DNA from: Planctomycetia bacterium | GTDB lineage: Bacteria; Planctomycetota; Planctomycetia; Gemmatales; HRBIN36 | Direction of reading: 5' to 3' | Length of the DNA stretch: 64,000 bases | Assembly (NCBI GenBank): GCA_016795155.1 | Contig: JAEUIE010000044.1 | Location: 188,224-252,223, forward strand | Shown here: positions 5,790 to 45,340 of the stretch, one piece after another | Position numbering within the stretch: the stretch's first letter is position 1 | Layout of the letters: the number at the start of each line of letters is the position of its first letter | The notes under the pieces: generated by a model | What the model saw: the letters and a program-made list of their open reading frames with translations, nothing else | Database searches by the model: none | Told to the model about the DNA's origin: nothing | Made by a program: the position numbers and the translations under genes

Positions 5790-6397
5790 GTGACATGCCT
5801 GTCTGATAAGAGTCGTTCCACATACTTGGCAAGTATATCCACTTCGAGATTAACCTTATCGCCTGGCTTGAGCTGACCAAGATTGGTTACCTCGAGCGTA
5901 TGTGGTATCAAGGCAATACTGAATTCTAAGTCAGAGACATTTACCACCGTGAGGCTGACGCCGTTGATTGTGATAGATCCCTTGGCAACTGCATAACGTG
6001 ACAGTTCACCAGGCAACTCAAAATGAAATAACTCCCAGTTTTGGTCAGGTTGGCGTCGAAGGAGTATTCCAACTCCATCGACATGTCCTTGCACCCAGTG
6101 CCCTCCCAGCCTATCGCCCATTTTCAATGCACGTTCCAGGTTCACCATGCAGCCCGGCTTAAGATCAACCAGGTTTGTGCGGCGGAGAGTTTCAGGAGCA
6201 AGTTGAAATGTGGACTGTTGCTGATCCTTTGTAACAACTGTCAGACAAACGCCATTGACAGCAATACTCTCACCCATCTTGATGGTTTCATCAAACATGT
6301 TGGATTGGATGACCAGCTTGTTGCCGTCTTCATTCGGCAGAAATTGAACGACTTTTCCCTGTGTTTCAACTAAACCCGTAAACATGAATTCTCTCAA
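5786..6397 (-). CDS. ribE: Riboflavin synthase alpha chain
   Basis: 203 aa. MFTGLVE N-terminus and duplicated Lum-binding halves (..VNLE.. twice). 4-nt overlaps on both sides. Confidence 0.9.
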   Translation of the reverse strand: MREFMFTGLVETQGKVVQFLPNEDGNKLVIQSNMFDETIKMGESIAVNGVCLTVVTKDQQQSTFQLAPETLRRTNLVDLKPGCMVNLERALKMGDRLGGHWVQGHVDGVGILLRRQPDQNWELFHFELPGELSRYAVAKGSITINGVSLTVVNVSDLEFSIALIPHTLEVTNLGQLKPGDKVNLEVDILAKYVERLLSDRHVT

Positions 6398-32286: not shown

Positions 32287-32466
32287 TTACTCTCTTTTCT
32301 TTTCAACTGATCGAACTCTTTTCCGGGCGCCATCATCATGCAGCATGCGATAGCTGGCATTTTCCAGATGATCGAACTGGCCAGTTTGGATGCACCAGCG
32401 GAAGGCAAGAAATGCAGCGAGTACCAGAAGTAGCGCCACGGGCAAGGCAATGTAGATCACACTCAT
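32287..32466 (-). CDS. ccoS: cbb3 oxidase maturation protein CcoS/FixS
   Basis: 59 aa: MSVIYIALPVALLLVLAAFLAFRWCIQTGQFDHLE... (single TM + SGQFDD-like motif). ATG overlaps the ccoI stop (ATGA). The 100-aa track ORF is an N-terminal over-extension. Confidence 0.85.
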   Translation of the reverse strand: MSVIYIALPVALLLVLAAFLAFRWCIQTGQFDHLENASYRMLHDDGARKRVRSVEKKRE

Positions 32467-34949
32467 GAGTCGCTCCTGAATGTTTGCTGGCTGGCAGCAA
32501 GTACAGTGACGGTGAGTGAACTGATCGGCATGAGGATGGCTGCCAGCAGGGGCGTGATGTACCCAGAAACAGCCAGTCCCATTGCACATAAATTATATCC
32601 TAGCGAGATGATCAATCCCCGACGAATGGCCTGCAGTGTACGTTTGCTGCCTTGCATAAGATCCAGAAGTGGTGCGAGCCCCGGCGTTCCCAGGTAAACG
32701 GGTGCAGTCTGCAACGCCACTTCTGCACCGCCTTGAACTGCAATTCCCACGGAAGCTGCAGCCAATGCCGCAGCGTCATTCACACCATCCCCCACCATCA
32801 CCACAGTACCGAACTGATTACGGGAATGCTTTACGATCTCCAGTTTGTGTTCTGGAGTTACCTCGCCGTAAGCCATGCTATCCGGTATCTGCAACTGGTC
32901 TGCAACCTGCCGAACAATGGATTGATGATCTCCGGAGAGAATACCAACTTGCCAGCCAGCCTGGCGCAGCGTCTGAAGACTGTCTGCCGCATCTCTGCGA
33001 ATGGCATCACCAAGGGCTGCCTGGGCTACCAGATTGCCATCGCAGGCAACGTAGATCGGCGTCCAGCCTGCCCTCAGCCAACCTGAGACCCTTTTAGTTG
33101 ACGAGACCGATAACGGAATCTGGAATCGTTCCATCATGGCTCGCGACCCGGCAACAAGATGCTGTCCATCCACCCAGCCTTCGACACCATATCCTGAGTG
33201 ATACTGCTGTTCCCGGCATAATGCAGGCTTGATATTTCCCATTCGCTCCCGCAGTGCATTGACCATTGAAACTGCCAAAGGATGGACAATGCCCTGTTCC
33301 AGGGCAAGAACGCCCGGCATGAACCGCTCATCCCCTTGCCAGTCCTTCAGTGTCACTTTCCCTTCGGTTATCGTGCCTGTCTTATCGAGCCAGACCATGC
33401 CCGGCTGGCTGAGTAGTTCAAAGACATCTCCTCGGCGAATGAGAATCTTCTGTCTCGCAGCCCGCCCCTGGGCGATGGCAATCGTCATGGGAGTGGCCAG
33501 CCCCAGGGCACAGGGACATGCGACAATGAGCAGAGCAATCGTGTGGTTGATGGCGATGACTGCACCCTGATGCCACCAGATGCCGAGCGTGACTGCAGCA
33601 AGCGTCAGCACCAGGTAGATGAAATAACCAGAAACACGATTAGCCAGTTCGACGATGGGGGTATGTGCCAGCGAAGCTGACTCGACCAGGTCCATCAGCT
33701 TGCCGATGCGACTGTCTTTTCCAATCGCAGCAACCCTCAGCCTCAGCACGCTGCCCAGGTTGGTAGCCCCGGCTGTGACAATACCGCCAGGTTGTATAGG
33801 TACACCAGCAGATTCCCCCGTCAGCAGGGATTGGTCAAGCGTGGATTGTCCGGAAAGCACAACGCCATCGGCTGGCAACAGGTCTCCCACTCGCACTTCC
33901 ACCTCGTCGCCCGGCTTCAGGGACACAGTGGGCACGCTTTCGATTCCTGTCGGGATTACGCGAAAGGCAATGCGAGGTGTCAGGCTGCGAAGCAACGACA
34001 GACTCTCCGCAGCACGCTGTTGTTGACGATACTGCAGAAAACGACCAATCAACAAGACAAAGATGAGCATGCACAGCGAATCGAAATAAATCTCCCCATT
34101 GCCCATGATGGTGTTGTAGATACCCATGATGCCGCCCGCTGCCAGGCCAATGGCGAGCGAGATATCCATATGTGGCATCCGGGCTCGCAGAGCATGCCAG
34201 GCCCCCCGGAAAAAGGTCGCTCCCGGCCAAAGCAGTGCAATCAGCCCCAGACCTGCGCTCACCCATCGCAAAATCGTTTCATGCTCGTGCGAGATGCCAT
34301 CAAATAATCCTCCGTAGAGGGCAAAAGCAATCAACATGCTGTTGCCTGCACAAAGCCCCGCCATGCCGAGCCTGACCAGATGCTGATGCATCTCCTTACG
34401 ATGTAGCGAGGTGCGGTGAGTTTCACTGGCAGGGTGACAGGCATAGCCCAATCGGGAAAGTTGACAGGCAATCTTCGAAAGTGGTAACTGCGACTGGTTC
34501 CAGCGTATCAGCACCTGGCGTGAAAGCAGCTGAGCTCGACTTTCCTGCACACCCTGGCAGAGCAACGGCAACTTTTCCACCAGCCAGACACATGCCGCAC
34601 AGTGCATCCCTTCCAGAATGAGACGTACTTCACTTAATCCACCTGGCAATTGACGGACATAGGTTGATTGGAAGGTTGGATCATCCATTTCCGAGTAATC
34701 ATCAGGCAGATTCCTGGCCTGAAGTGGTTGTGAATCAACCGAGCGACAGATCTGATAGAACGCATCCAATCCTTCGGCATGCAACAATTGCCAGACCGTG
34801 CTGCAACCCGAACAACAGAACTGTTCCTTTGCCCCAGGCGCCACCAATCCGGCTGGTACCGGCAATTGACAATGGGAACAAATCACCTCACTTCGCGTCG
34901 CTGAAGTGTGTACCGCTGAGCGAGATGGAAGTGCCAGGCTAGTCGTCAT
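32463..34949 (-). CDS. ccoI: Copper-translocating P1B-type ATPase CcoI/FixI
   Basis: CPC (VACPCALGLATP), DKTGTIT, GDGVNDA, N-terminal Cys-rich region (CSHCQLPV..CCSGC) and GMHCAACV HMA motif. ATG at 34949 preferred over 35003. Confidence 0.9.
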   Translation of the reverse strand: MTTSLALPSRSAVHTSATRSEVICSHCQLPVPAGLVAPGAKEQFCCSGCSTVWQLLHAEGLDAFYQICRSVDSQPLQARNLPDDYSEMDDPTFQSTYVRQLPGGLSEVRLILEGMHCAACVWLVEKLPLLCQGVQESRAQLLSRQVLIRWNQSQLPLSKIACQLSRLGYACHPASETHRTSLHRKEMHQHLVRLGMAGLCAGNSMLIAFALYGGLFDGISHEHETILRWVSAGLGLIALLWPGATFFRGAWHALRARMPHMDISLAIGLAAGGIMGIYNTIMGNGEIYFDSLCMLIFVLLIGRFLQYRQQQRAAESLSLLRSLTPRIAFRVIPTGIESVPTVSLKPGDEVEVRVGDLLPADGVVLSGQSTLDQSLLTGESAGVPIQPGGIVTAGATNLGSVLRLRVAAIGKDSRIGKLMDLVESASLAHTPIVELANRVSGYFIYLVLTLAAVTLGIWWHQGAVIAINHTIALLIVACPCALGLATPMTIAIAQGRAARQKILIRRGDVFELLSQPGMVWLDKTGTITEGKVTLKDWQGDERFMPGVLALEQGIVHPLAVSMVNALRERMGNIKPALCREQQYHSGYGVEGWVDGQHLVAGSRAMMERFQIPLSVSSTKRVSGWLRAGWTPIYVACDGNLVAQAALGDAIRRDAADSLQTLRQAGWQVGILSGDHQSIVRQVADQLQIPDSMAYGEVTPEHKLEIVKHSRNQFGTVVMVGDGVNDAAALAAASVGIAVQGGAEVALQTAPVYLGTPGLAPLLDLMQGSKRTLQAIRRGLIISLGYNLCAMGLAVSGYITPLLAAILMPISSLTVTVLAASQQTFRSDS

Positions 34950-35700
34950 GGCAGCACGGTAGTTTCGTTGTAGAAAGTTGTGGTATCGCTTCAGCACCGA
35001 CAAACTCGTTATTCGAGTGAATCGATAACCCGAACGTAGATCGATGCATCAATGTCATCGAGCCAAGAACCAGACAAGCGGCAATTGCAATCCAGGGCGT
35101 GGCTGATCGCCAGTGCTGCGATAGATGGCCTGCGGAAACACCAATCAAGCTCAGCATTGGTAAGGTTCCCAGCCAGAATGCCAGCATGATGACCATGCCA
35201 CTGACCACATCGCCACTACCTGCAGCCACTATGACAAAAGCGTATAACCAGCCACATGGAATCCAGGTGGTAAGCAGGCCGATCCACCAGGAACGGAAAA
35301 CTTCTGGCCAGGCTTTCGCCCAACGAAACCCGGCATAAATCCCTTTCACCCAGTGCTGCGGTATCGGCAGATGCTGTATTGGCACACCCGCTTGTCGCAA
35401 TAGCAACACTACAGCGCTCAGGAACATGGTGGCAGCCGCCAGGTACGCTGCCCCACGCTGCGACTCAACGAGCCAACCGGTGGAGTTCAAAGCCTGGCCT
35501 AACGCCCCGGCCAGCGTACCAAGCAGTACATAGGTTGTCAGCCTGCCCAGGTGGTAGGCTGTCAGCTTGCTGGACACACCTCGATCAGTTTCACCGGGTT
35601 TACCCGTCAACAGAAGCACAAACGGCCCGCACATACCGGCGCAATGTGTGCTGCCTAACAGGCTCGCTGCGACAATAGTCACCAGCAGTTCCAGATTCAT
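34939..35700 (-). CDS. TauE/SafE-like (COG2836-type) membrane protein with HCxxMCGP motif
   Basis: 253 aa, ~6-7 TM, N-terminal GSTHCAGMCGPF. ATGA overlap with fixH stop. Embedded in the cco maturation genes. Confidence 0.7.
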   Translation of the reverse strand: MNLELLVTIVAASLLGSTHCAGMCGPFVLLLTGKPGETDRGVSSKLTAYHLGRLTTYVLLGTLAGALGQALNSTGWLVESQRGAAYLAAATMFLSAVVLLLRQAGVPIQHLPIPQHWVKGIYAGFRWAKAWPEVFRSWWIGLLTTWIPCGWLYAFVIVAAGSGDVVSGMVIMLAFWLGTLPMLSLIGVSAGHLSQHWRSATPWIAIAACLVLGSMTLMHRSTFGLSIHSNNEFVGAEAIPQLSTTKLPCCHDD

Positions 35701-36233
35701 GAACTGAATCTCCAGAACTTTTCCTGTCGATCAACGAAGTGCTCGCCATCGCGAATTACGTTCAGATCAATCTGCCAGACCCCTGTTCTACCCAGTCGAG
35801 CCTGTCCGCGGTAAAGCCCCGTCTGATGCCCAACCGGCGTTAGCCGTACTTGTTGTCGCTGATTTCCCCGGGCATGGTGCCAGAGTTCCACGCTCACCTG
35901 TGCCATCTCCACCGGCTGATCCTGTGCGTTCTTTATCTCTACCGTGAAACTGTGAACAGGAGAACTACTGCTTGGAGTCTCAAGGTACACCTTCCACTTC
36001 CAACCCAGCCGCTCACTGGCTTGTCGTTCGCTTAGGATCTTGTCGTGTTCCATCGCCTGCTGATGATAATTGGGAATGACAGAATGCGTAGGATCACTGG
36101 TTGCCAGAACGATGGCAACCATACTCATGGAAAACTGAACCACAAAGAAACCTGCAATCAGGCCGCCCCACATCAGCCGGGCACGTCGTTCCGATTGCTG
36201 TTCCAGTTCGATCACGGCCCCAGTAGACGACAT
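35697..36233 (-). CDS. FixH-family protein
   Basis: 178 aa. One N-terminal TM then a beta-rich periplasmic domain. Position between ccoG and ccoI is typical of FixH/CcoH. Confidence 0.7.
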   Translation of the reverse strand: MSSTGAVIELEQQSERRARLMWGGLIAGFFVVQFSMSMVAIVLATSDPTHSVIPNYHQQAMEHDKILSERQASERLGWKWKVYLETPSSSSPVHSFTVEIKNAQDQPVEMAQVSVELWHHARGNQRQQVRLTPVGHQTGLYRGQARLGRTGVWQIDLNVIRDGEHFVDRQEKFWRFSS

Positions 36234-37609
36234 GTGATCTCCTTTCGTACCGTGCTGCCATCTTTGACGGCAAGCTTCAAATCATAATGCCCGAAGGTAA
36301 AGGCTGATTTCGGCACCGTGACCAGCACCGCATGCGTGTTCAGCTCCAAGGGCCTGGCCAGCCAGGGCTGACCAACTGCTTCGAGTTTCACTTCATCTTT
36401 CTTGACAGCACCAGTATCGAGCAGTTCCAGGGTGTAGCTGCGATCTTCCTGTTCACGATTCACGAGTTTGATCTGAAAAGTGTTCTGTACCGTGCCCTCA
36501 GCCGTCACAGTAAATGGACTGCCTAGTGTCCGCAGAACGGTAACATCCACAGGAGCACGCCGGCTCAGCACAATGACAAAGGCTGATACTGCAATCAACA
36601 GCAGCAGCGGATAGATCACCACGCGTGGGCGCAGCTTCTTGTGAGGTAATCCTTCGATGGCTTCTTGGCAGGAGTAACGAATCAGCCCGCGAGGTTTGTT
36701 GATCTTGTCCATGATCTCATCGCAGGCATCGATGCACTGCGTACAGTGGACGCATTCCATCTGCAGGCCCTGACGAATATCGATACCGGTAGGACACGTA
36801 CGTACACATAATCCGCAATCGATGCAGTCACCCTGGGTTCGTTCCGCCAACTGCAACTCGGTGCGAAGCTTGCCACGCGGTTCGCCCCGTTTCACATCGT
36901 AAGCCACAATCAGCGATTGCTTGTCGAGTAGAACCGATTGCAGCCTTCCGTAAGGGCATGCCACCAGACAGGTCTGTTCCCGAAAGTAGCCGAAGTCAAA
37001 AAGCATCAGCCCGGTGACGACCGCCATCACCATGAAGGCAACAGGATGGTTGAAGGGAGAGCCCAGGATCCAATGGCTGAGTTGATCTACACCAACGAAA
37101 TAGGCAAGAAACGTATGTGCCAGCAGCATTGAGACCATCAGATAGGCAACAAACTTCAGACTGCGTCGCCAGCCCGGTGTCAGCGAGGAGGGCTTGCCCC
37201 CCTTACCCATGGTACCATCAAAGAACCGTTCGATGGGGCGAAACACATATTCGAGATACACCGTCTGTGGACAGGCCCAGCCGCACCAGACCCGGCCATA
37301 CAGTGCCGTCAGCAGGAAGATGGTCAGAAACACGGAGACCATGAACAGCGCCAAAAGCAGCGTATCTGTCGGCAACAGCGTCAGACCGAAAAACGAAAAC
37401 TGCCGATGCAGCAGATCGAGCAGGATGGCTGGCTTGCCATTGATCTTCCAATGGGGAAGCAGCACAAAGAGGATGATCAGCCCGTACCCGACAAGACGCC
37501 GAGCATGCCAGTATCGTCCCGGAGAAAGACGAGGATAGAGCCAGCGGCGTGATCCATCTTTCTCCAGCGTCGAGAGGACATGTTCTTCAGGTTGCAGCAG
37601 GGCTGACAT
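36212..37609 (-). CDS. ccoG: cbb3 oxidase accessory 4Fe-4S protein CcoG/FixG
   Basis: 465 aa. CGWACPQTV, CIDCGLCVRTCP, CVHCTQCIDAC ferredoxin clusters, TM helices and C-terminal Ig-like domain. Confidence 0.9.
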   Translation of the reverse strand: MSALLQPEEHVLSTLEKDGSRRWLYPRLSPGRYWHARRLVGYGLIILFVLLPHWKINGKPAILLDLLHRQFSFFGLTLLPTDTLLLALFMVSVFLTIFLLTALYGRVWCGWACPQTVYLEYVFRPIERFFDGTMGKGGKPSSLTPGWRRSLKFVAYLMVSMLLAHTFLAYFVGVDQLSHWILGSPFNHPVAFMVMAVVTGLMLFDFGYFREQTCLVACPYGRLQSVLLDKQSLIVAYDVKRGEPRGKLRTELQLAERTQGDCIDCGLCVRTCPTGIDIRQGLQMECVHCTQCIDACDEIMDKINKPRGLIRYSCQEAIEGLPHKKLRPRVVIYPLLLLIAVSAFVIVLSRRAPVDVTVLRTLGSPFTVTAEGTVQNTFQIKLVNREQEDRSYTLELLDTGAVKKDEVKLEAVGQPWLARPLELNTHAVLVTVPKSAFTFGHYDLKLAVKDGSTVRKEITCRLLGP

Positions 37610-37621
37610 GATATTTCCTGC

Positions 37622-38191
37622 TTACTTCCAGGGTGGAATGGGGTTGCCTTCTGCAGCTTTGGCACCAGGCGGGTTGGATCCCCGCAGCGATGCCACATAG
37701 GCGCTCACCAACACCAGCTCGTTTGGATGCAGCCTATTCTTCCACGCAGGCATGGCCTGATTATTCGCACCGTTGGCTACCACAGTAGCAATATCCTCGA
37801 TAACTTTGACGTTTTTCCACTGCTCATCGGTCAGATTGGGGCCCACTTTGCCTTCACCCTTGTCACCATGACAGGAAACACAGTTGGACTTGTACACAAT
37901 CTCACCCACGGTACGCCATTTTGTATCATCCATGTATTTCAGAATGGTCGCGCGATCGGGCGTAAGTGTGCCGATCTCTGAAAATCGTATGCGAAGATCT
38001 TCCGCAACCTCTGCCGTGTAGCCATCGAGCGCAGATCGACCAGGTTCATTCGTATGGTAATAAACCCAATATCCAATGCTGAAGAAGATGCTGGCCACAA
38101 ACAGCCAGGTCCACCAGCCTGGAAGTGGATTGTCATACTCCTGGATCCCATCATACAGGTGATCCATGGGTTGTTGAGCTTGCTCACTCAT
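37622..38191 (-). CDS. ccoP: cbb3 oxidase subunit III (CcoP), mono-heme form
   Basis: 189 aa. FixP_N-type start DGIQEYDNPLPGWWTWLF, TM, a single CVSCH heme-c site with distal Met (NQAMPAW). Confidence 0.85.
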   Translation of the reverse strand: MSEQAQQPMDHLYDGIQEYDNPLPGWWTWLFVASIFFSIGYWVYYHTNEPGRSALDGYTAEVAEDLRIRFSEIGTLTPDRATILKYMDDTKWRTVGEIVYKSNCVSCHGDKGEGKVGPNLTDEQWKNVKVIEDIATVVANGANNQAMPAWKNRLHPNELVLVSAYVASLRGSNPPGAKAAEGNPIPPWK

Positions 38192-38367
38192 GCTCGGCGT
38201 ACCTCCGTGCCATCATTCAGTGGAATGCTGGCGTTGGCATGGGCTTCGGTCTTCCGCACGAAAAGCAGCGTGCGAATGGTGACAGCGAGAAATACCAGGA
38301 AGAACAGGATGAGCGCTGCTTCAGCACAGAAGGAGGCATCCAGATACTTCATCAAATCACGGATCAT
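38188..38367 (-). CDS. ccoQ: CcoQ/FixQ-like small membrane subunit (not in supplied ORF track)
   Basis: Hand translation: MIRDLMKYLDASFCAEAALILFFLVFLAVTIRTLLFVRKTEAHANASIPLNDGTEVRRA (59 aa, one TM). Starts 10 nt after the ccoNO stop. Its TGA overlaps the ccoP ATG (ATGA). Confidence 0.65.
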   Translation of the reverse strand: MIRDLMKYLDASFCAEAALILFFLVFLAVTIRTLLFVRKTEAHANASIPLNDGTEVRRA

Positions 38368-38376
38368 GTTCTCTCC

Positions 38377-40662
38377 TTACTTGGCAGCTACCTTTTTGCT
38401 CTCCGGAGTGGCAGGCTTGACGGGTGGCGTTTCAGGCTGCTCCACACCGAGCCGCTGCAGGTAAGCAATGATCGCCACCAGTTGTGTGCGCTCCAGGTTC
38501 TTCGGCAGACTGCCCTGCCCTCCGTTTTGTTGAATGATGTCATTAGCGATCTGCTTGGCCTGAGCCAACGCGATCGTCTCGGTATTCTCTATATCGGTTG
38601 GCCTGTAAGCCTGTCCTCCTGCCAGGAAATTATGTGCCCGCACACGTTCAGGCAGTGTCTTGAAATTCAACTCCGTTTGTTCGAAGGATGGATAAGCTGG
38701 CATGATCGAACCGGGGCTGGTATTCGTCGGGTTGCGGAAGTGAGTCGTGTGCCAGAGTGCATTCTGGGCTCCACCTTCACGAGCCAGATCAGGACCAATA
38801 CGGCGGGAACCCCACTGGAACGGATGGTCATACACGAACTCGCCTGGCTTGGAGTAGGGGCCGTACCGCTTGGTCTCCGCCAGGATAGGACGGATCATCT
38901 GTGAATGACAGTTGTAGCAGCCATTGGCGATGTAGAGATCGCGCCCCGCCAGTTCGAGCGGCGTGTATGGCTTCACCCCAGGCAGTGCTGGAATGTTTGA
39001 ACGAATGAGGAACGAGGGCACCAGTTCAAACAGCGTCGCTGCCACCACCGCAATCACCACCCAGACCGTGAACTTCAACGGCAGACGTTCCCAGCGGCGA
39101 TGCCACCACAGCGTCGACCATACATCAATCTTCTTGCCCATCTCCAGCACTGCTTCCAGCTTGGATTCAGGTGCAGGATCATCAACATAGTTACTGGTCA
39201 ACCGGGGGGCAGTGTAAACTGGTTCCTCGTAAACAGCGGGCCGAGCCATCCAGGTACGAATGAAGTTGTATAGACAGAGCACCGCACCCAGCAAAAACAG
39301 CAAGCCACCACCCACACGAATCCAGTACATCGGCATCAGCACCTGCACGGTTTCGATGAACTTGGGGTACATCAGATTGCCCTGCTCATCGATGGCCCGC
39401 CACATCAAACCCTGAGTCAATCCCGCAACATAGATGGGCACGATGTACAGCAGGATACCAATGGTGCCGAGCCAGAAGTGCCATTCCGCCAGTTTCTTGC
39501 TGTAGAGTTTGGTCTGGAAGATACGGGGTAGCAGCCAGTAGATCATGCCGAAAGTCATCATGCCATTCCAGCCAAGCGCCCCGCCATGCACATGGGCGAT
39601 CGTCCAGTCGGTGTAGTGGGACAAAGCATTGACTGACTTGATCGAAAGCACAGGGCCTTCAAAAGTAGCCATGCCATAAAAGGTGATTCCCACCACGAAG
39701 AACTTTAAAACAACATCTTCGGTGACTTTCTTCCAGGCCCCTCGGAGCGTGAGAAGCCCGTTGATCATGCCACCCCACGATGGCATCCAGAGCATCAGCG
39801 AAAAGAGCATGCCCAACGTCGTGCACCACTCCGGCGTGGCGGTGTAGTGCAAGTGGTGCGGGCCAGCCCAGATGTAAATGAAAACCAGCGACCAGAAGTG
39901 AATAATGCTGAGTTTGTACGAGAACACTGGACGTTCTGCGGCCTTGGGCAGGAAGTAGTACATCAGCCCAAGGAATGGAGTTGTCAGGAAAAACGCCACC
40001 GCATTGTGTCCATACCACCACTGCATGAAGGCATCCTGCACACCTGCGTAAATTGAATAACTTTGAAACAGCCCAACAGGTACCACCAGGCTGTTGAACA
40101 CATGCAGCACCGCAACAGTCACAATCGTGGCAATGTAGAACCAGAGTGCGACATACATGTGCCGTTCACGCCGGGTAGCCAATGTCATGAAAAAGTTCAC
40201 GCCGAAGAAACCGACCCAGACCACAGCAATGGCAAGATCAATCGGCCATTCCAGCTCGGCATATTCTTTACTTTGAGTGATTCCCAGAGGCAGCGTGATG
40301 GCCGCTGCTACGATGATAAGTTGCCAGCCATAAAAGTGAAGCCAACTGAGCGTATCGCTCCACATGCGGGCCTTGCACAGTCGTTGCGTGGAGTAGTAGA
40401 CCGCGGCAAAGATGGCGTTGCCACCGAAGGCGAAGATGGCGGCATTGGTATGCAGTGGGCGCAATCTGCCAAACGAGGTGAACGTCCAGCCCAGGTTCAG
40501 GGCCGGCACTACCAGTTGCAGGGCGATGATCACTCCGACCAGCATTGCCACCACCGCCCATACACAGGTGATGAGCGCGAAGGCTCGCACTATCTTGTCG
40601 TCGTATTTAAACTCTTCGAGTGTAACAGCAGGCGATTGAGCAGCGGATTGGCTCATGTACAC
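38377..40662 (-). CDS. ccoNO: Fused cbb3-type cytochrome c oxidase subunits I and II (CcoN-CcoO)
   Basis: 761 aa. Heme-copper subunit I helices with WAGPHHLHY, HVHGGALGW, HFWLG His ligands. C-terminal third has a TM + CYNCHSQMIRP heme-c motif of CcoO. Confidence 0.93.
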   Translation of the reverse strand: MYMSQSAAQSPAVTLEEFKYDDKIVRAFALITCVWAVVAMLVGVIIALQLVVPALNLGWTFTSFGRLRPLHTNAAIFAFGGNAIFAAVYYSTQRLCKARMWSDTLSWLHFYGWQLIIVAAAITLPLGITQSKEYAELEWPIDLAIAVVWVGFFGVNFFMTLATRRERHMYVALWFYIATIVTVAVLHVFNSLVVPVGLFQSYSIYAGVQDAFMQWWYGHNAVAFFLTTPFLGLMYYFLPKAAERPVFSYKLSIIHFWSLVFIYIWAGPHHLHYTATPEWCTTLGMLFSLMLWMPSWGGMINGLLTLRGAWKKVTEDVVLKFFVVGITFYGMATFEGPVLSIKSVNALSHYTDWTIAHVHGGALGWNGMMTFGMIYWLLPRIFQTKLYSKKLAEWHFWLGTIGILLYIVPIYVAGLTQGLMWRAIDEQGNLMYPKFIETVQVLMPMYWIRVGGGLLFLLGAVLCLYNFIRTWMARPAVYEEPVYTAPRLTSNYVDDPAPESKLEAVLEMGKKIDVWSTLWWHRRWERLPLKFTVWVVIAVVAATLFELVPSFLIRSNIPALPGVKPYTPLELAGRDLYIANGCYNCHSQMIRPILAETKRYGPYSKPGEFVYDHPFQWGSRRIGPDLAREGGAQNALWHTTHFRNPTNTSPGSIMPAYPSFEQTELNFKTLPERVRAHNFLAGGQAYRPTDIENTETIALAQAKQIANDIIQQNGGQGSLPKNLERTQLVAIIAYLQRLGVEQPETPPVKPATPESKKVAAK

Positions 40663-40701
40663 AAGTCCTTGCTAGGGCAACGAACAACCATGCAGGGAGG
40701 A

Positions 40702-40717
40702 AGCAACTTGTGTACCA
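40702..40717 (-). promoter_or_regulatory. Sigma54 (-24/-12) promoter candidate upstream of ccoNO
   Basis: Minus strand reads TGGTACACAAGTTGCT versus consensus TGGCACG-N4-TTGCW. GG and GC have the exact 12-nt register. -12 GC lies about 40 nt upstream of the ccoNO ATG. Confidence 0.6.
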
Positions 40718-40749
40718 AATCATTACAGGCTGGTTTTCAAGGGGTCGGG

Positions 40750-40786
40750 GTGTGCGACCTCTCCATACCTGTGCGGCATCGCACAC
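40750..40786. promoter_or_regulatory. Inverted repeat GTGTGCGA-N21-TCGCACAC (UAS or terminator candidate)
   Basis: Perfect 8-bp arms at 40750-40757 and 40779-40786, abutting the EBP stop codon and centred ~50 nt upstream of the -24 element. Confidence 0.35.
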
Positions 40787-42126
40787 TACCAAGATGTGAT
40801 GCCATGCTTTTCCAATAACCGGTACAGCGAACGGCGAGTAATACCCAGTGACTGGGCTGCCTGCGATTTATTGCCCTGTGATCGCTGCATCGCTTCGATG
40901 ACCTTGCGGCGGGTCATATCTCCAAGTACCAGCGATTCCTGAGAAGTGACGATGGTGGCTGCATCGCTGGTTTCCACCACTTCTGGCGGGAAGTTTTTCA
41001 GTTCAATTAGATTGTCTTCCGCCAATATCTTCGCCCGTTCGATGGCGTTTCTAAGTTGTCTTATATTGCCCGGCCAATCATACTGAAGCAGTGCTGGAAC
41101 AACGTTCTCCGCGACACGCCAGCCGTTACCCAGGAAATGATGAAACAGCAGCGGGAGATCACCGGTACGTTCCCTCAATGGCGGCAAATGCAGTGTCAGC
41201 AGATTGATGCGATAAAAAAGATCTTCCCGAAACCGTCCGGCTTTGACTTCAGCCGATAAATCGCGATTAGTGGCAGCAATCAACCGTACGGTCACTCGGC
41301 GTTCCTTGATGGAACCAACTCGTCGCAAGCTGCCGTCTTCCAGAATTCGCAACAGCTTGGGTTGAAGAGTCGGGCTCAGTTCGCCTATCTCGTCTATAAA
41401 CAAGGTGCCACCGTCTGCCACCTCGAACAGACCGGGCTTTGCAGAAGCTGCACCGGTAAATGCCCCTTTCTCATGTCCAAACAGTTCACTTTCCAGAAGC
41501 TGATCCGGCAAGGCGGCACAGTTGATGGTGACCAGCGGCTGTGATGCCAGCGGACTGGCAGCCACCAAAGCCCGTGCCACCAGTTCCTTGCCTGTTCCGC
41601 TTTCACCCTGAATGAGTACGGGTTTGTCAGTTGGGCCCATGCGTTGAATCAGCCGTTGTACCTGCTGCATCGCTACTGATTCGCCGATCAACTCGACCCC
41701 AGGCTGCCTTTTTCTGATCAATTCCCTGAGGTGTTGATTCTCCCTTTCAATCTTTCTCTGATGCAGTTGCCTTTCAAGAACTGCCTGCAGTTCAGCCAGA
41801 CGAACGGGTTTTTGAAGGAAATCGACTGCTCCGCACTTCATGGCCTCAACAGCAAGGGGAATCGTACCCTGCCCCGACATCATCACGACTGCACAGTCGT
41901 GGTTTCTTTCCTGCAGTAGTTTGAGAAAATCCATGCCCGTTTGTTCTGGCATAAAGTAATCGACTATTGCACAGGCTACATCTTTCTCAACAAGATATTT
42001 CAACCCTTCCTGAACAGAACCAACCGACAGCACCTGATAACCAAGTCGGATAAGGTTGCGTGCCACTTGTTCGCGCAAATCAGGGTCATCATCAATAAGC
42101 AGCAACTCAGCAGAATGCAACGGCAT
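40786..42126 (-). CDS. Sigma54-dependent enhancer-binding response regulator (NtrC family)
   Basis: Receiver (LLLIDDDPD.., AIVDYFMP), AAA+ core [14 protein letters not shown] loop, C-terminal Fis-type HTH. ATG at 42126 preferred. The track ORF starts at a TTG at 42192. Confidence 0.9.
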
Positions 42127-42157: not shown

Positions 42158-42526
42158 CTATGAAGAAGCGGTAGCAGCGATAGCTGCTTCAAAATCTTGC
42201 CGTTTCACGGGCTTGCGAAGATAGGACCAGGCTACCTGTGCATCATCGGGCGGAAATTGGCCTGACAGTTGATAAGCCGATATGAGAATCGTCGGAATGG
42301 GATGCGTTTTCCAGATTTCACGGATTGCCTGTTCGCCATCGAGTTGTGGCATCCGCACATCGCTGATGATCAAGTCCGGGTGTAATCGTTGACAGGCTTC
42401 CACCAGAGCCGTTCCGTTGTCGACCGCTGCCACCACTTCGTGGCCCAGTCGTTTAATGACTTTGCTGTAGTGATCGCGTATCTCCGCTTCATCGTCGGCG
42501 ATAGCGATCCGCAGGTGACGGGCCAT
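42158..42526 (-). CDS. Stand-alone response-regulator receiver protein
   Basis: 122 aa. IAIADDE, phospho-acceptor context LIISDVRMP, conserved K region (ILISAY). Confidence 0.85.
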   Translation of the reverse strand: MARHLRIAIADDEAEIRDHYSKVIKRLGHEVVAAVDNGTALVEACQRLHPDLIISDVRMPQLDGEQAIREIWKTHPIPTILISAYQLSGQFPPDDAQVAWSYLRKPVKRQDFEAAIAATASS

Positions 42527-43715
42527 GGTTCTCTCGAGGCAGAATCACACGAAACTCCGCACCAGGCAGATTTGCAGGTCCCAAATGGAGTTGTCCGCCA
42601 TGTGCTTCGACAATGCGATGTGCAATTGCCATGCCTAATCCGGTACCTTTGCTTTTCGTCGTAAAAAACGGTTCAAAAACATGCTGGCGTGCGGATTCGC
42701 TCAACCCTGGCCCATTGTCTCGCACACGCACTTCCACCATGGGCTGCTCTTCCCGTTCCAGAGAGCGGATTTCTAAATCTATTTCCACTGGATCAGAACA
42801 AGCTGCCAAAGAATTCTCAAAAAAATTACGCAGAAGTTGCTGCAACCGAAACGGATCGTAGCTGCCTTCTTCCATTCCAGGCTCAATAGTCAGATTTAAT
42901 TTCGCCTGCCTGCCAAGCTTAGGAAGCGATAGGCTCTCCCATGCCTGCTCTACCATGTTCCGCCAATAAACTTTTTCTTTCTCCAACACAATAGGGGCCG
43001 CATAATTCTGCACTTCAGTCAACAGCCTGGTAAGATCATCCTGCGCTACACTCAATCGACTCAAGTCCTGTTGAACTTCCTTATTACCTTCCAGGTCAAG
43101 CTCCAGACTTTCCGTGGAAGCCCGCATACGCTGCAAAGCATTACGTGCCTCATGGGCCAGTCCCGTAATCATCTGGCCAATGGAAGCCAGACGCTCATCC
43201 TGCTTTGCTTGTGTCCTCTGTCTGATTTGAAGCTCTGCTTCGTATGCGGCAGAAATAAGCGCCAGATCAATATCAAGAAGCTTGTGCAGTGTTATCAAGC
43301 ATTGTCTCAGTTGAGGCAGATCTTTTTTCAGTTCCTCCAGGAGTACGCACTGCATCTGCATACGCAAACGTCCATGAGCTATATTGACATATGTTTGATC
43401 CAGCCCGATCTCCACATGACGATATCCTACCTGCCAGCGTCGCTGGATGTACTCGTTGTCGTATTCACCAGCCAGCAATTCCTTCAGCCACTTCTCCAGG
43501 CTGATTTTCAGTCGGGCAATCTGCTGATCACCACCAACAATAACCTGGGCAACTTTGGGATGACGCACAATTTCACTGTAGAAATCTTCAACGAAAACCT
43601 GGCTGAAAGGCATTAACAGGTTGTTTAACTCTTTGACAGTCTGGCTGTCCTGTGGTGACCAGTTAATGTAACGCTTCAGCAGATCATACTTTTCGAAGAT
43701 GAATTGATGGATCAT
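42489..43715 (-). CDS. Globin-coupled sensor histidine kinase (soluble)
   Basis: 408 aa, no TM. N-terminal ~150 aa match the sensor-globin pattern (VEDFYSEIVRHP..; RRWQVGYRHVEIGL with candidate proximal His100). H-box LAHEARNAL (His188). HATPase N/G boxes (RDNGPGL, GTGLGMA). Confidence 0.8.
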   Translation of the reverse strand: MIHQFIFEKYDLLKRYINWSPQDSQTVKELNNLLMPFSQVFVEDFYSEIVRHPKVAQVIVGGDQQIARLKISLEKWLKELLAGEYDNEYIQRRWQVGYRHVEIGLDQTYVNIAHGRLRMQMQCVLLEELKKDLPQLRQCLITLHKLLDIDLALISAAYEAELQIRQRTQAKQDERLASIGQMITGLAHEARNALQRMRASTESLELDLEGNKEVQQDLSRLSVAQDDLTRLLTEVQNYAAPIVLEKEKVYWRNMVEQAWESLSLPKLGRQAKLNLTIEPGMEEGSYDPFRLQQLLRNFFENSLAACSDPVEIDLEIRSLEREEQPMVEVRVRDNGPGLSESARQHVFEPFFTTKSKGTGLGMAIAHRIVEAHGGQLHLGPANLPGAEFRVILPRENHGPSPADRYRRR

Positions 43716-43855: not shown

Positions 43856-45340
43856 TTATCCGAGTGGTTCAATAATAAACGCATGATACTGCCAGGGTTC
43901 TACATCGAGGTAAAGCCCCTTGGCCTGCAATTCATCCCCTGATCGATCATAAACCGCATCGCTGAGGAGATCACGCAGCCGCCAGTTGTGGTTGCCCAGA
44001 TCAGACATGGAAGGTCGTACATAGCACTGGCTTCGCTCTCCTGAGTAATTGACAGCCACCAGCATTCGATTTCCGGCAATATCATTCCAGGTGTATGCCA
44101 GGAAATGATCCCGGGTAGCATTGTTCTCCCAGGCTGCATGACAAGGTGCAAGCTGCCAGTCGCCATTTCGTAGTACAGGTTGCTTGAGTACAGCTAGCAG
44201 CCGCTGATAGAACGTCTGCAATGGGACATCGACCGGTTCAACGGGCCCTCGAATCAAATGCGGAGAAATCCGAACCTGTTTCCCTTCCAGTTGCCCCTGA
44301 TGAAAGAAGCGTAAGCCCGGGCTGAGGAATGTAATCACTGCTGCAGCACGGTGAACTTCCAGCGGGAAAGTTTTGGCGGCACGAGGCTCATCATGATTTT
44401 CAAGAAAACGAACCATCTTGTTCTGATACTGCATGTCGGCATGCAGATGTTCGCGCGCAGCCCGAGTTTGCCTGTGTTCCAAACGATCATAGAGCCGTTT
44501 GTCGTAGGTATAATCGAACCCCTGCTGCTGGAGCGTCCATTCAAGATCCCAGTACACCTCTGCCACGAAACAGAAGGCCGGGTGGTTTTGCCTGACTTCC
44601 TTGATGGCCCTCTCCCAGAATGGTTCCGCCTTCAAACCCCAGGTTCGTTCAAAGACATCGGGCAGCACCAGCATGGCCATGTCGCAGCGGACGCCATCGC
44701 ACTGGCCAGCTATTCTGGCGAGTTCTGCCCGCATGGCTGCCTGGGTGGCAGGATTGGCGTAGTTCAGTTGCAGCGTGTCAGGCCAGCCGGGGAAGTAGGG
44801 GTCACGGCCATGGGCCAGGAGCAGACTGCCCTGCTTGGTTGGAACACGTGTGTAATTTTTCGGCGCCTGGGCGAGTTGGAGTTCGGTGCCAGCCACGAAG
44901 TAATCGGGATGCTCGTTCACCCAGGGATGATCCAGTGCCATGTGATTGGGGACAAAATCGAGGAGAAGGCGGAATCCTCGTTTCCTGAGTCGTTCGCGCA
45001 GGCGTGCCAGTGCAGCATCCCCGCCGAGGTTCGTGTGAACGGTATAGCCGGTGATGGCGAAACCTGAACCACCAATGTCGTCGTCCGTCAGATCGGGCAA
45101 GGTATTCCTGAATTCGTTCAGCCACTCCGGATTGGTACGTGAGATGCGCTGAGCAGCAGTCCCGGTCTGCCAGACGCTGAGCAGCCAGATCCAATCGAAC
45201 TTCTGCTCGGCAAGTTTATCGAGTTCAGCATCGGGGATATCGTCGAGGGTGGCGCGCTTGCCGAGCTTTCTGGAAAGCTCGGTGAGCCAGACACGGGTAT
45301 TGATCTGGTACAGGCTGGGATACTGGGGCGAGAGATTCAC
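43856..45340 (-). CDS. GH13 alpha-amylase-family glycoside hydrolase
   Basis: 494 aa with the four GH13 regions: DFVPNH, GVRCDMA, FVAEVYW, FLENHDE. Confidence 0.85.
   Translation of the reverse strand: MNLSPQYPSLYQINTRVWLTELSRKLGKRATLDDIPDAELDKLAEQKFDWIWLLSVWQTGTAAQRISRTNPEWLNEFRNTLPDLTDDDIGGSGFAITGYTVHTNLGGDAALARLRERLRKRGFRLLLDFVPNHMALDHPWVNEHPDYFVAGTELQLAQAPKNYTRVPTKQGSLLLAHGRDPYFPGWPDTLQLNYANPATQAAMRAELARIAGQCDGVRCDMAMLVLPDVFERTWGLKAEPFWERAIKEVRQNHPAFCFVAEVYWDLEWTLQQQGFDYTYDKRLYDRLEHRQTRAAREHLHADMQYQNKMVRFLENHDEPRAAKTFPLEVHRAAAVITFLSPGLRFFHQGQLEGKQVRISPHLIRGPVEPVDVPLQTFYQRLLAVLKQPVLRNGDWQLAPCHAAWENNATRDHFLAYTWNDIAGNRMLVAVNYSGERSQCYVRPSMSDLGNHNWRLRDLLSDAVYDRSGDELQAKGLYLDVEPWQYHAFIIEPLG

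Follow-up and report, generated by a model that had tools for sequence, protein, structure and literature searches.

The oxidase genes considered here lie in a 64,000-nucleotide stretch of DNA from a Planctomycetia bacterium of the order Gemmatales (contig JAEUIE010000044.1, positions 188,224 to 252,223), which we refer to as the window and whose own numbering is used for all coordinates. On its minus strand, the genes of a cbb3-type cytochrome oxidase follow three regulatory genes, in the order globin-coupled histidine kinase, stand-alone receiver, NtrC-family enhancer-binding response regulator (EBP), intergenic gap and ccoNO cluster. An initial annotation had placed a near-consensus sigma-54 promoter of the -24/-12 type in the gap, and had predicted that ccoNO is transcribed in a sigma-54-dependent manner under activation by the EBP. 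When conservation in relatives was checked, this prediction was supported, the element being kept in all 11 loci where such an EBP gene is linked to the oxidase genes.

Read on the minus strand, the gap carries ATTTGGTACACAAGTTGCTT at 40720..40701, within which the -24/-12 element TGGTACACAAGTTGCT (40717..40702) has its GG at 40716-40715 and its GC at 40704-40703, with exactly 10 nt from one to the other (GG-N10-GC). It matches the consensus TGGCACG-N4-TTGCW at 10 of the 12 specified positions, and this reading confirms the exact register of GG and GC as well as the two mismatches named in the initial annotation (C to T and G to A). The element begins 68 nt past the EBP stop codon TAG (40788..40786), which also bears out its described location directly downstream of a gene for a GAFTGA-containing EBP. 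The annotated spacing needs a small correction: what was given as ~40 nt to the ccoNO ATG and a gap of 123 bp becomes 47 nt, counted from the C of the GC to the ATG at 40656, and 129 bp from stop codon to ATG, the value of 123 bp being obtained only with an in-frame GTG at 40662 as start. The ATG (40656..40654) is probably the true start because it gives a protein of 759 aa as in the orthologs. From the usual distance between -12 element and +1, transcription of ccoNO is predicted to begin near 40691, leaving a predicted 5′ untranslated region (UTR) at 40657..40691 that includes the Shine-Dalgarno sequence AAGGA (40670..40666) and is conserved within the Gemmatales clade. A palindrome, CCTTGCAAGG, occurs in the ccoNO 5′ UTR of three of the related loci described below (L001, L003 and L007; CCTAGCAAGG in the window at 40666-40675, minus strand), where it overlaps the Shine-Dalgarno sequence. 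Simple scans of the gap found neither a sigma-70-like promoter nor an intrinsic terminator, the gap has no Rfam match, and its RNA fold is ordinary (z=-0.85).

The EBP gene (40786..42126, minus strand) encodes a protein of 446 aa with the Pfam domains PF00072 (REC), PF00158 (Sigma54_activat, the AAA+ domain) and PF02954 (HTH_8), residues D56 and K106 in the receiver domain, and the GAFTGA loop at residue 221. The 11 orthologs compared all share both of these residues and the F-T-G-A of the loop, with GSFTGA in three of them, and the helix-turn-helix (HTH) region is conserved across the same 11 proteins. No NCBIfam equivalog scores above its cut-off for this protein, and its best-named relatives are from Gemmatales. 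Upstream of it, the stand-alone receiver (42158..42526, minus strand; 122 aa, Pfam Response_reg) has 25% identity to the receiver domain of the EBP; in all 11 loci it consists of a single REC domain and has 120-132 aa. The first gene of the three (42489..43715, minus strand) encodes a kinase of 408 aa with the Pfam domains Protoglobin, HisKA and HATPase_c, presumed to be the O2 sensor. Its globin domain aligns over the full length with the structure of AfGcHK (5ohe; E=5e-25), and the distal Tyr45 and proximal His99 of AfGcHK correspond to Y46 and H100 in this alignment. By domain content the protein is a globin-coupled histidine kinase of the AfGcHK/NmpU type, and it is predicted to bind heme and O2.

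The cassette is found repeatedly in planctomycetes. For comparison we used the contigs carrying ten orthologs of the EBP, with identities from 89% to 57%, which together with the window give 11 loci from three orders of Planctomycetia (Gemmatales, Planctomycetales and Pirellulales). Among them are a 5.76-Mb metagenome-assembled genome (MAG) of Gemmatales (L001) and the genomes of Planctellipticum variicoloris (L005, Planctomycetales) and Bremerella cremea (L090, Pirellulales). The arrangement kinase-receiver-EBP-ccoNO is present in all ten of the other independent loci, and the genes upstream of the kinase vary. The sequence GG[T/C]A[C/T]-N5-TTGC is found in the EBP-ccoNO gap of every one of the 11 loci at constant GG-N10-GC spacing; no locus departs from the GG, the A at -22 or the TTGC, while the five spacer bases vary freely. 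The other ten loci score 8-10 out of 12 against the sigma-54 consensus, and the distance from element to ATG is 45-81 nt in the ten loci for which the fetched DNA includes the ccoNO start. Two public ccoNO starts, in L008 and L091, are misplaced, and the corrected reading restores the motif in both, in L091 just downstream of the mis-called start. Six loci whose gaps are otherwise unalignable still keep GG...TTGC. Conservation that falls on the bases contacted by sigma-54 and leaves the spacer free is the signature of a -24/-12 promoter rather than of generic conservation.

In addition to the promoter element, the gap contains palindromic sites that are candidates for the upstream activating sequence (UAS) of the EBP. 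UAS1, the perfect palindrome TGTGCG-ATGC-CGCACA (40785..40770), follows directly after the EBP stop codon with its center at about -86; it is the sole match to the palindrome in the window when one mismatch is allowed, and is a putative site for an EBP dimer. UAS2 (40751..40766, minus strand) lies 19 bp downstream of UAS1, is centered at about -67 and retains only the right half-site CGCACA (40756..40751). All 11 linked loci have the palindrome TGTGCG-N4-CGCACA with no more than one mismatch, starting 0-70 nt past the EBP stop codon, and nine of the ten others (L001, L003, L004, L005, L006, L007, L089, L090 and L091) have a second CGCACA or a full site 18-23 bp past the first. UAS and promoter are separated by 67-68 bp in the core Gemmatales clade and by as much as 266 bp in B. 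cremea, a variability expected of an enhancer. Half-site variants (TGAGCG, CGTGCG) occur without a compensating change on the other arm. The palindrome is therefore a site for a protein, not a hairpin in RNA. We consider the conserved palindrome a likely enhancer bound by the EBP.

As controls, we collected fused-ccoNO loci lacking the cassette with a profile scan based on the ccoNO alignment. The scan gave at least 80 such loci, with ccoNO identities of 59-71%, from other Planctomycetota, Myxococcota, Gemmatimonadota and other groups; 75 of them have enough upstream sequence for comparison. None of the 80 control loci listed has the cassette directly upstream of ccoNO. The palindrome (at most one mismatch) is found in 11 of 11 linked loci versus 2 of 75 unlinked ones (p=3e-12), and a sigma-54 score of at least 9/12 in 10 of 11 versus 12 of 75 (p=1.7e-6). 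The FNR/FixK box TTGAT-N4-ATCAA, by comparison, is found in none of the 11 linked and in three of the 75 unlinked loci (p=1.0), with examples upstream of fused ccoNO reading TTGATCTAGATCAA in L071 and TTGATCCAGATCAC in L051. Different clades run the same operon with different O2 regulators.

Two further patterns were seen among loci without the cassette. Seven Pirellulales-type loci (L011, L012, L014, L015, L017, L019 and L020), five of them assigned to Pirellulaceae genera, share a conserved TGGCAC-N5-TTG[T/A] 89-118 nt upstream of ccoNO with no adjacent regulators; the -12 part of this element is GT or GA and not GC, and six of the seven carry TGTGCG half-sites further upstream. Upstream of fused ccoNO and in the opposite orientation, L020 (3794-5371), L047 (217-1758) and L055 (755-1888) encode globin-coupled histidine kinases, adjacent to ccoNO in the first two and ~4 kb away in the third, with no EBP nearby in any of them. 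The association of such kinases with the oxidase recurs in these three loci with other wiring.

The kinase gene itself contains a second sigma-54-like element. The sequence AGGCATGGCAATTGCA (42636..42621, minus strand) lies 95 nt before the receiver ATG, in the codons of the kinase G2 box (G-M-A-I-A), has the GG-N10-GC spacing and matches 10 of the 12 consensus positions. A UAS-like site, TGAGCGAATCCGCACG (42703..42688, minus strand; codons for L-S-E-S-A-R), which is a two-mismatch copy of the palindrome, stands 67 nt upstream of it, nearly the same spacing as the 68 nt between UAS1 and the ccoNO promoter element. All 11 loci keep the form GG[C/A]ATGGC[A/G]ATTGC in the kinase gene; the UAS-like site is confined to the seven loci of the Gemmatales clade and missing from the four more distant ones. 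Across the kinase genes of six orthologs, where an amino acid is invariant and has degenerate codons, its codon is also invariant in only 11.7% of cases, and the most codon-frozen windows are the internal sigma-54-like element, the UAS-like site and the stretch in which the kinase and receiver genes overlap. This overlap, the third of the codon-frozen stretches, is 38 nt long and in different frames (42489-42526). Globin kinases that are unlinked to an EBP have GLGL at the corresponding place, with other codons and no sigma-54-like motif. The internal element is a candidate autoregulatory promoter for the receiver and EBP genes, and we put the chances of this at about even.

Public sequencing runs offer a limited view of expression. 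DNA runs containing the sequence are bioreactor and wastewater metagenomes. RNA was available as assembled, unstranded contigs from four sediment metatranscriptomes with a related population; RNA runs X26-X28 and X30 contained nothing from this organism. In the four sediment runs, contigs over ccoNO reach a depth of ~10-30 and stop 3-12 nt before the ATG, at 40659-40668. No contig lies within ~40690-41155 in these runs and none bridges the gap, and the EBP gene has a depth of 2-9, several-fold below ccoNO. Contig depth over the kinase and receiver genes is flat, with contig breaks that coincide with strain variants. A 5′ end located between the ATG and the -12 element would fit these contigs, which argue against strong read-through from the EBP gene.

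The presumed target of the candidate promoter is a cbb3 oxidase cluster. Its first gene, ccoNO (38377..40656, minus strand), encodes a fusion of cbb3 oxidase subunits I and II with the Pfam domains COX1 and FixO, and it exceeds the curated cut-offs of NF011053 (1184 versus 1080 bits), TIGR00780 (674 versus 583) and TIGR00781 (205 versus 201). Downstream on the same strand are a ccoQ-like open reading frame (ORF) of 59 aa taken from the ORF list (38188-38367) and, from Pfam matches together with that list, ccoP (37622-38191), ccoG (36212-37609), fixH (35697-36233), a gene for a DsbD_2 protein (34939-35700) and ccoI, which encodes a P-type ATPase (32463-35003). The order ccoNO-Q-P-G-H-DsbD-I is the same in the relatives wherever the fetched DNA reaches; that of L091 stops just inside ccoNO. 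On the other side of the cassette the neighborhood is not conserved: the window has an alpha-amylase-family gene there (43856-45340), and the cytochrome c nitrite reductase gene nrfA, which the window lacks, lies a few kb upstream of the cassette in L001 (641-2579, also with nrfH) and L006 (1-927).

We consider it very likely that TGGTACACAAGTTGCT is a functional sigma-54 promoter of the ccoNO-ccoQ-ccoP-ccoG-fixH-dsbD-ccoI operon and that it is activated by the adjacent EBP. What we observe are the sequence elements and the way they are conserved together with the cassette, as well as the protein domains and the heme ligands; from these we infer the path of the signal, including DNA binding, phosphotransfer partners, start site and sign of the O2 response. 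In the proposed mechanism, O2 would bind to the heme of the globin-coupled kinase and lead to its autophosphorylation, and the phosphate would pass to the stand-alone receiver, to the receiver domain of the EBP, or to both. The activated EBP would then assemble and oligomerize on the tandem sites just past its own stop codon (40785..40770 plus the CGCACA half-site), contact the closed complex of sigma-54 holoenzyme at 40717..40702 and open the promoter at the expense of ATP, so that the cbb3 structural and assembly genes would be transcribed from near 40691. The internal promoter in the kinase gene would add positive autoregulation of the receiver and EBP genes. As for the sign, induction of ccoNO in the presence of O2 ('O2-on') is favored with low confidence because the conserved cassette has no inverter kinase of the NmpS type described below; our belief in this direction is evenly balanced, and an inverter elsewhere in the genome, or a kinase dominated by its phosphatase activity, would reverse it. 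If true, the 'O2-on' sign would be the opposite of the FixL, FNR and NmpRSTU paradigms. The fullest version of the proposal, a self-contained globin kinase-receiver-EBP switch that turns the oxidase on with O2 and amplifies itself through a promoter and enhancer set in the G2-box codons of the kinase, is put forward tentatively, and we think it rather doubtful that all of it holds.

Several points weigh against the promoter and its proposed activation by this EBP. Within the window, the lone motif is statistically not significant: TGGYAYR-N4-TTGCW has a single exact match on both strands of the 64 kb, where 0.36 are expected by chance and 31 of 100 shuffled sequences contain at least one, and the looser TGG-N8-TTGCW occurs at the chance rate. 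The significance of the motif comes from its position, orientation and conservation. In the closest relatives the whole gap is conserved, including the 5′ UTR, which leaves only about six diverged loci to carry footprinting weight. The UAS centers at about -86 and -67 are unusually near the promoter in the Gemmatales clade. The RNA contigs belong to the population of a relative, are unstranded and end 23-32 nt short of the predicted +1, and the 'O2-on' direction is a guess. Finally, the RpoN box was absent from the 64-kb window and from 1.07 Mb of fetched loci. Since rpoN has been reported in the planctomycete R. baltica (RB6491; PMC2754498) and the GAFTGA loop of the EBP is conserved, we presume its presence in the host.

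The chance level of the degenerate motif leaves room for an explanation in which the match is accidental and ccoNO owes its expression either to an unrecognized housekeeping promoter in the gap or to read-through out of the kinase-receiver-EBP operon. The lack of a terminator between the EBP gene and ccoNO would allow such read-through, and planctomycete housekeeping promoters are poorly defined, so a sigma-70 scan may miss them. However, an accidental match does not account for a spacer that varies between an invariant GG and TTGC in all 11 loci, six of them with unalignable gaps, nor for its co-occurrence with the cassette, and read-through is at odds with RNA contigs that do not span the gap and with an EBP depth several-fold under that of ccoNO; we hold this explanation to be extremely improbable. 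The conserved elements might instead be real and serve something other than sigma-54, either as the site of another regulator or as an RNA element, such as a processing site or attenuator, in a polycistronic transcript. UAS1 RNA can form a 6-bp hairpin, and the 5′ UTR is also conserved in close relatives. Against an RNA element stand the ordinary fold, the lack of an Rfam match and the uncompensated TGAGCG and CGTGCG variants, while a different regulator is hard to reconcile with conservation that coincides exactly with the sigma-54 contact bases and skips the spacer, and the FNR/FixK box is found in none of the 11 loci. We judge this account very improbable.

It is also conceivable that the sigma-54 promoter is real but answers to another EBP or to a signal other than O2, the cassette being a mere neighbor or a sensor of redox state, nitric oxide (NO) or carbon monoxide (CO). 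Globin sensors can bind NO and CO as well as O2, the pairing of EBP and promoter and the ligand specificity are only inferred, and the Pirellulaceae loci have a similar element before ccoNO with no adjacent regulators. The palindrome, on the other hand, starts 0-70 nt after the EBP stop codon in all linked loci and is nearly absent from unlinked ones, and where the site is kept the EBP keeps its HTH region as well. As to the signal, the target is itself an O2 reductase, and the nearest characterized kinases, AfGcHK and NmpU, are described as O2-responsive (PMC11841059). We regard activation by a different EBP or by a different signal as improbable.

The closest known counterpart is in Myxococcus xanthus, where NmpR and sigma-54 control a cbb3 cluster as part of the NmpRSTU oxygen-utilization regulon (PMC11841059, J Bacteriol 2025). 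There, NmpU, like AfGcHK, is reported to be active with O2 bound, and the hybrid kinase NmpS reverses the signal, making hypoxia the condition in which the EBP is active (PMC11841059). The planctomycete locus resembles NmpRSTU in having a protoglobin kinase at the top, an NtrC-like EBP as output and a cbb3 cluster among the targets. Paired dyad EBP sites upstream of sigma-54 promoters and autoregulation of the regulator are features of NmpRSTU that are likewise proposed here. The two systems differ in phylum (Planctomycetota in place of Myxococcota) and in several parts of their wiring. No NmpS-like hybrid kinase of the REC-HisKA-CA type lies between or beside the cassette genes in any of the 11 loci, a count that covers the loci only, and the receiver is a single domain here whereas NmpT is a double-receiver phosphosink. 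The site TGTGCG-N4-CGCACA also contrasts with the paired GCGCA-N5-TGCGC sites of NmpRSTU, which are 14-15 bp apart and have their half-sites in the opposite arrangement; a site of the NmpR type (at most one mismatch) is found in none of the 11 linked loci. Moreover, the regulators here are directly upstream of ccoNO and the promoter precedes ccoNO, whereas the M. xanthus promoter stands before the P-type ATPase gene and the cbb3 genes.

Sites of the M. xanthus kind were seen in seven Myxococcota-type MAGs (L028, L031, L036, L037, L075, L080 and L084), where GCGCA-N5-TGCGC and a good sigma-54 site immediately precede fused ccoNO. The sites lie ~30-140 nt upstream of ccoNO, whose start is near 6001 in most of these loci, and are paired ~30 bp apart in four of the seven. 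From this arrangement, regulation of the M. xanthus type seems to occur widely, with ccoNO itself as its point of action. One of these loci, L028, has an EBP gene beside ccoNO whose product is only ~41% identical to the EBP of the window. Both phyla may commonly place cbb3 oxidases under sigma-54, a view tempered by the non-canonical -12 element of the Pirellulales-type loci.

Other well-known systems share single features with this locus. As in FixLJ-FixK and FNR/Anr of Proteobacteria, a heme or Fe-S sensor of O2 controls a high-affinity cbb3 oxidase; those systems, in contrast, use CRP/FNR-type activators at sigma-70 promoters with the box TTGAT-N4-ATCAA, where the planctomycete locus has an AAA+ EBP and a -24/-12 promoter. 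The initial annotation had called the arrangement unusual, and this holds against the FixLJ/FixK and FNR paradigms, although NmpR and sigma-54 in M. xanthus provide a published precedent (PMC11841059). AfGcHK of Anaeromyxobacter sp. Fw109-5 (5ohe) is matched end to end by the globin of the window kinase, with distal Tyr and proximal His and the HisKA/HATPase core in common. The downstream regulon of AfGcHK is unknown (PMC11841059), whereas a presumptive output promoter and target operon adjoin the kinase gene here. With the NtrC and DctD promoters (glnAp2 and dctA), the locus shares tandem dyad sites upstream of a GG-N10-GC element and a UAS distance that varies among orthologs; unlike these, it has a terminal oxidase as its target and, in the Gemmatales clade, a UAS only ~45-60 bp upstream of the -24 element.

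Our literature searches did not find this planctomycete arrangement described. Homologs of NmpU and NmpT in Planctomycetes were noted in a 2018 PLoS Genet paper on the M. xanthus system with no link to a cbb3 oxidase drawn (PMC6211767), and a 2025 survey of predicted sigma-54 regulons that includes Planctomycetia is silent on cytochrome, oxidase or respiration targets (PMC12316311). Our own attempt to find further targets, by scanning metagenomes for TGTGCG-N4-CGCACA-N40-70-GGTAY-N5-TTGC, gave 31 matches, none of which adjoin ccoNO or relatives of the EBP; several lie inside opposite-strand genes, and the products encoded downstream are unrelated to O2 (CHASE kinases, MsrB and unknowns). This pattern scan is uninformative about the regulon. 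An exact 16-mer, TGTGCGATGCCGCACA, with GGTACGTSAGTTGC after it, is common to five metagenome contigs (L092, L093, L102, L108 and L121); the TGTGCGATGCCGCACA match appears to be inside an opposite-strand gene, with a frame ending in CAT ~120 nt downstream, and looks like coincidence.

Experimental proof of such wiring comes so far only from M. xanthus, in a different form, and the locus described here extends sigma-54/EBP control of a cbb3 oxidase from one studied myxobacterium to a second phylum. Hardly any experiments have addressed gene regulation in Planctomycetes, where almost no promoter-regulator pair is known. The locus presents a complete circuit that can be read from sequence, with sensor, regulator, enhancer, promoter and target, conserved in three orders. 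Since the planctomycete version has a different DNA site and a simpler phosphorelay than the myxobacterial one, the sign of its O2 response is directly testable, and the cassette is present in cultured, sequenced strains such as Planctellipticum variicoloris and Bremerella cremea. The defined candidate EBP motif can further be used for genome-wide prediction of the regulon, and the circuit bears on how these bacteria, frequent in wastewater reactors and sediments, cope with fluctuating oxygen.

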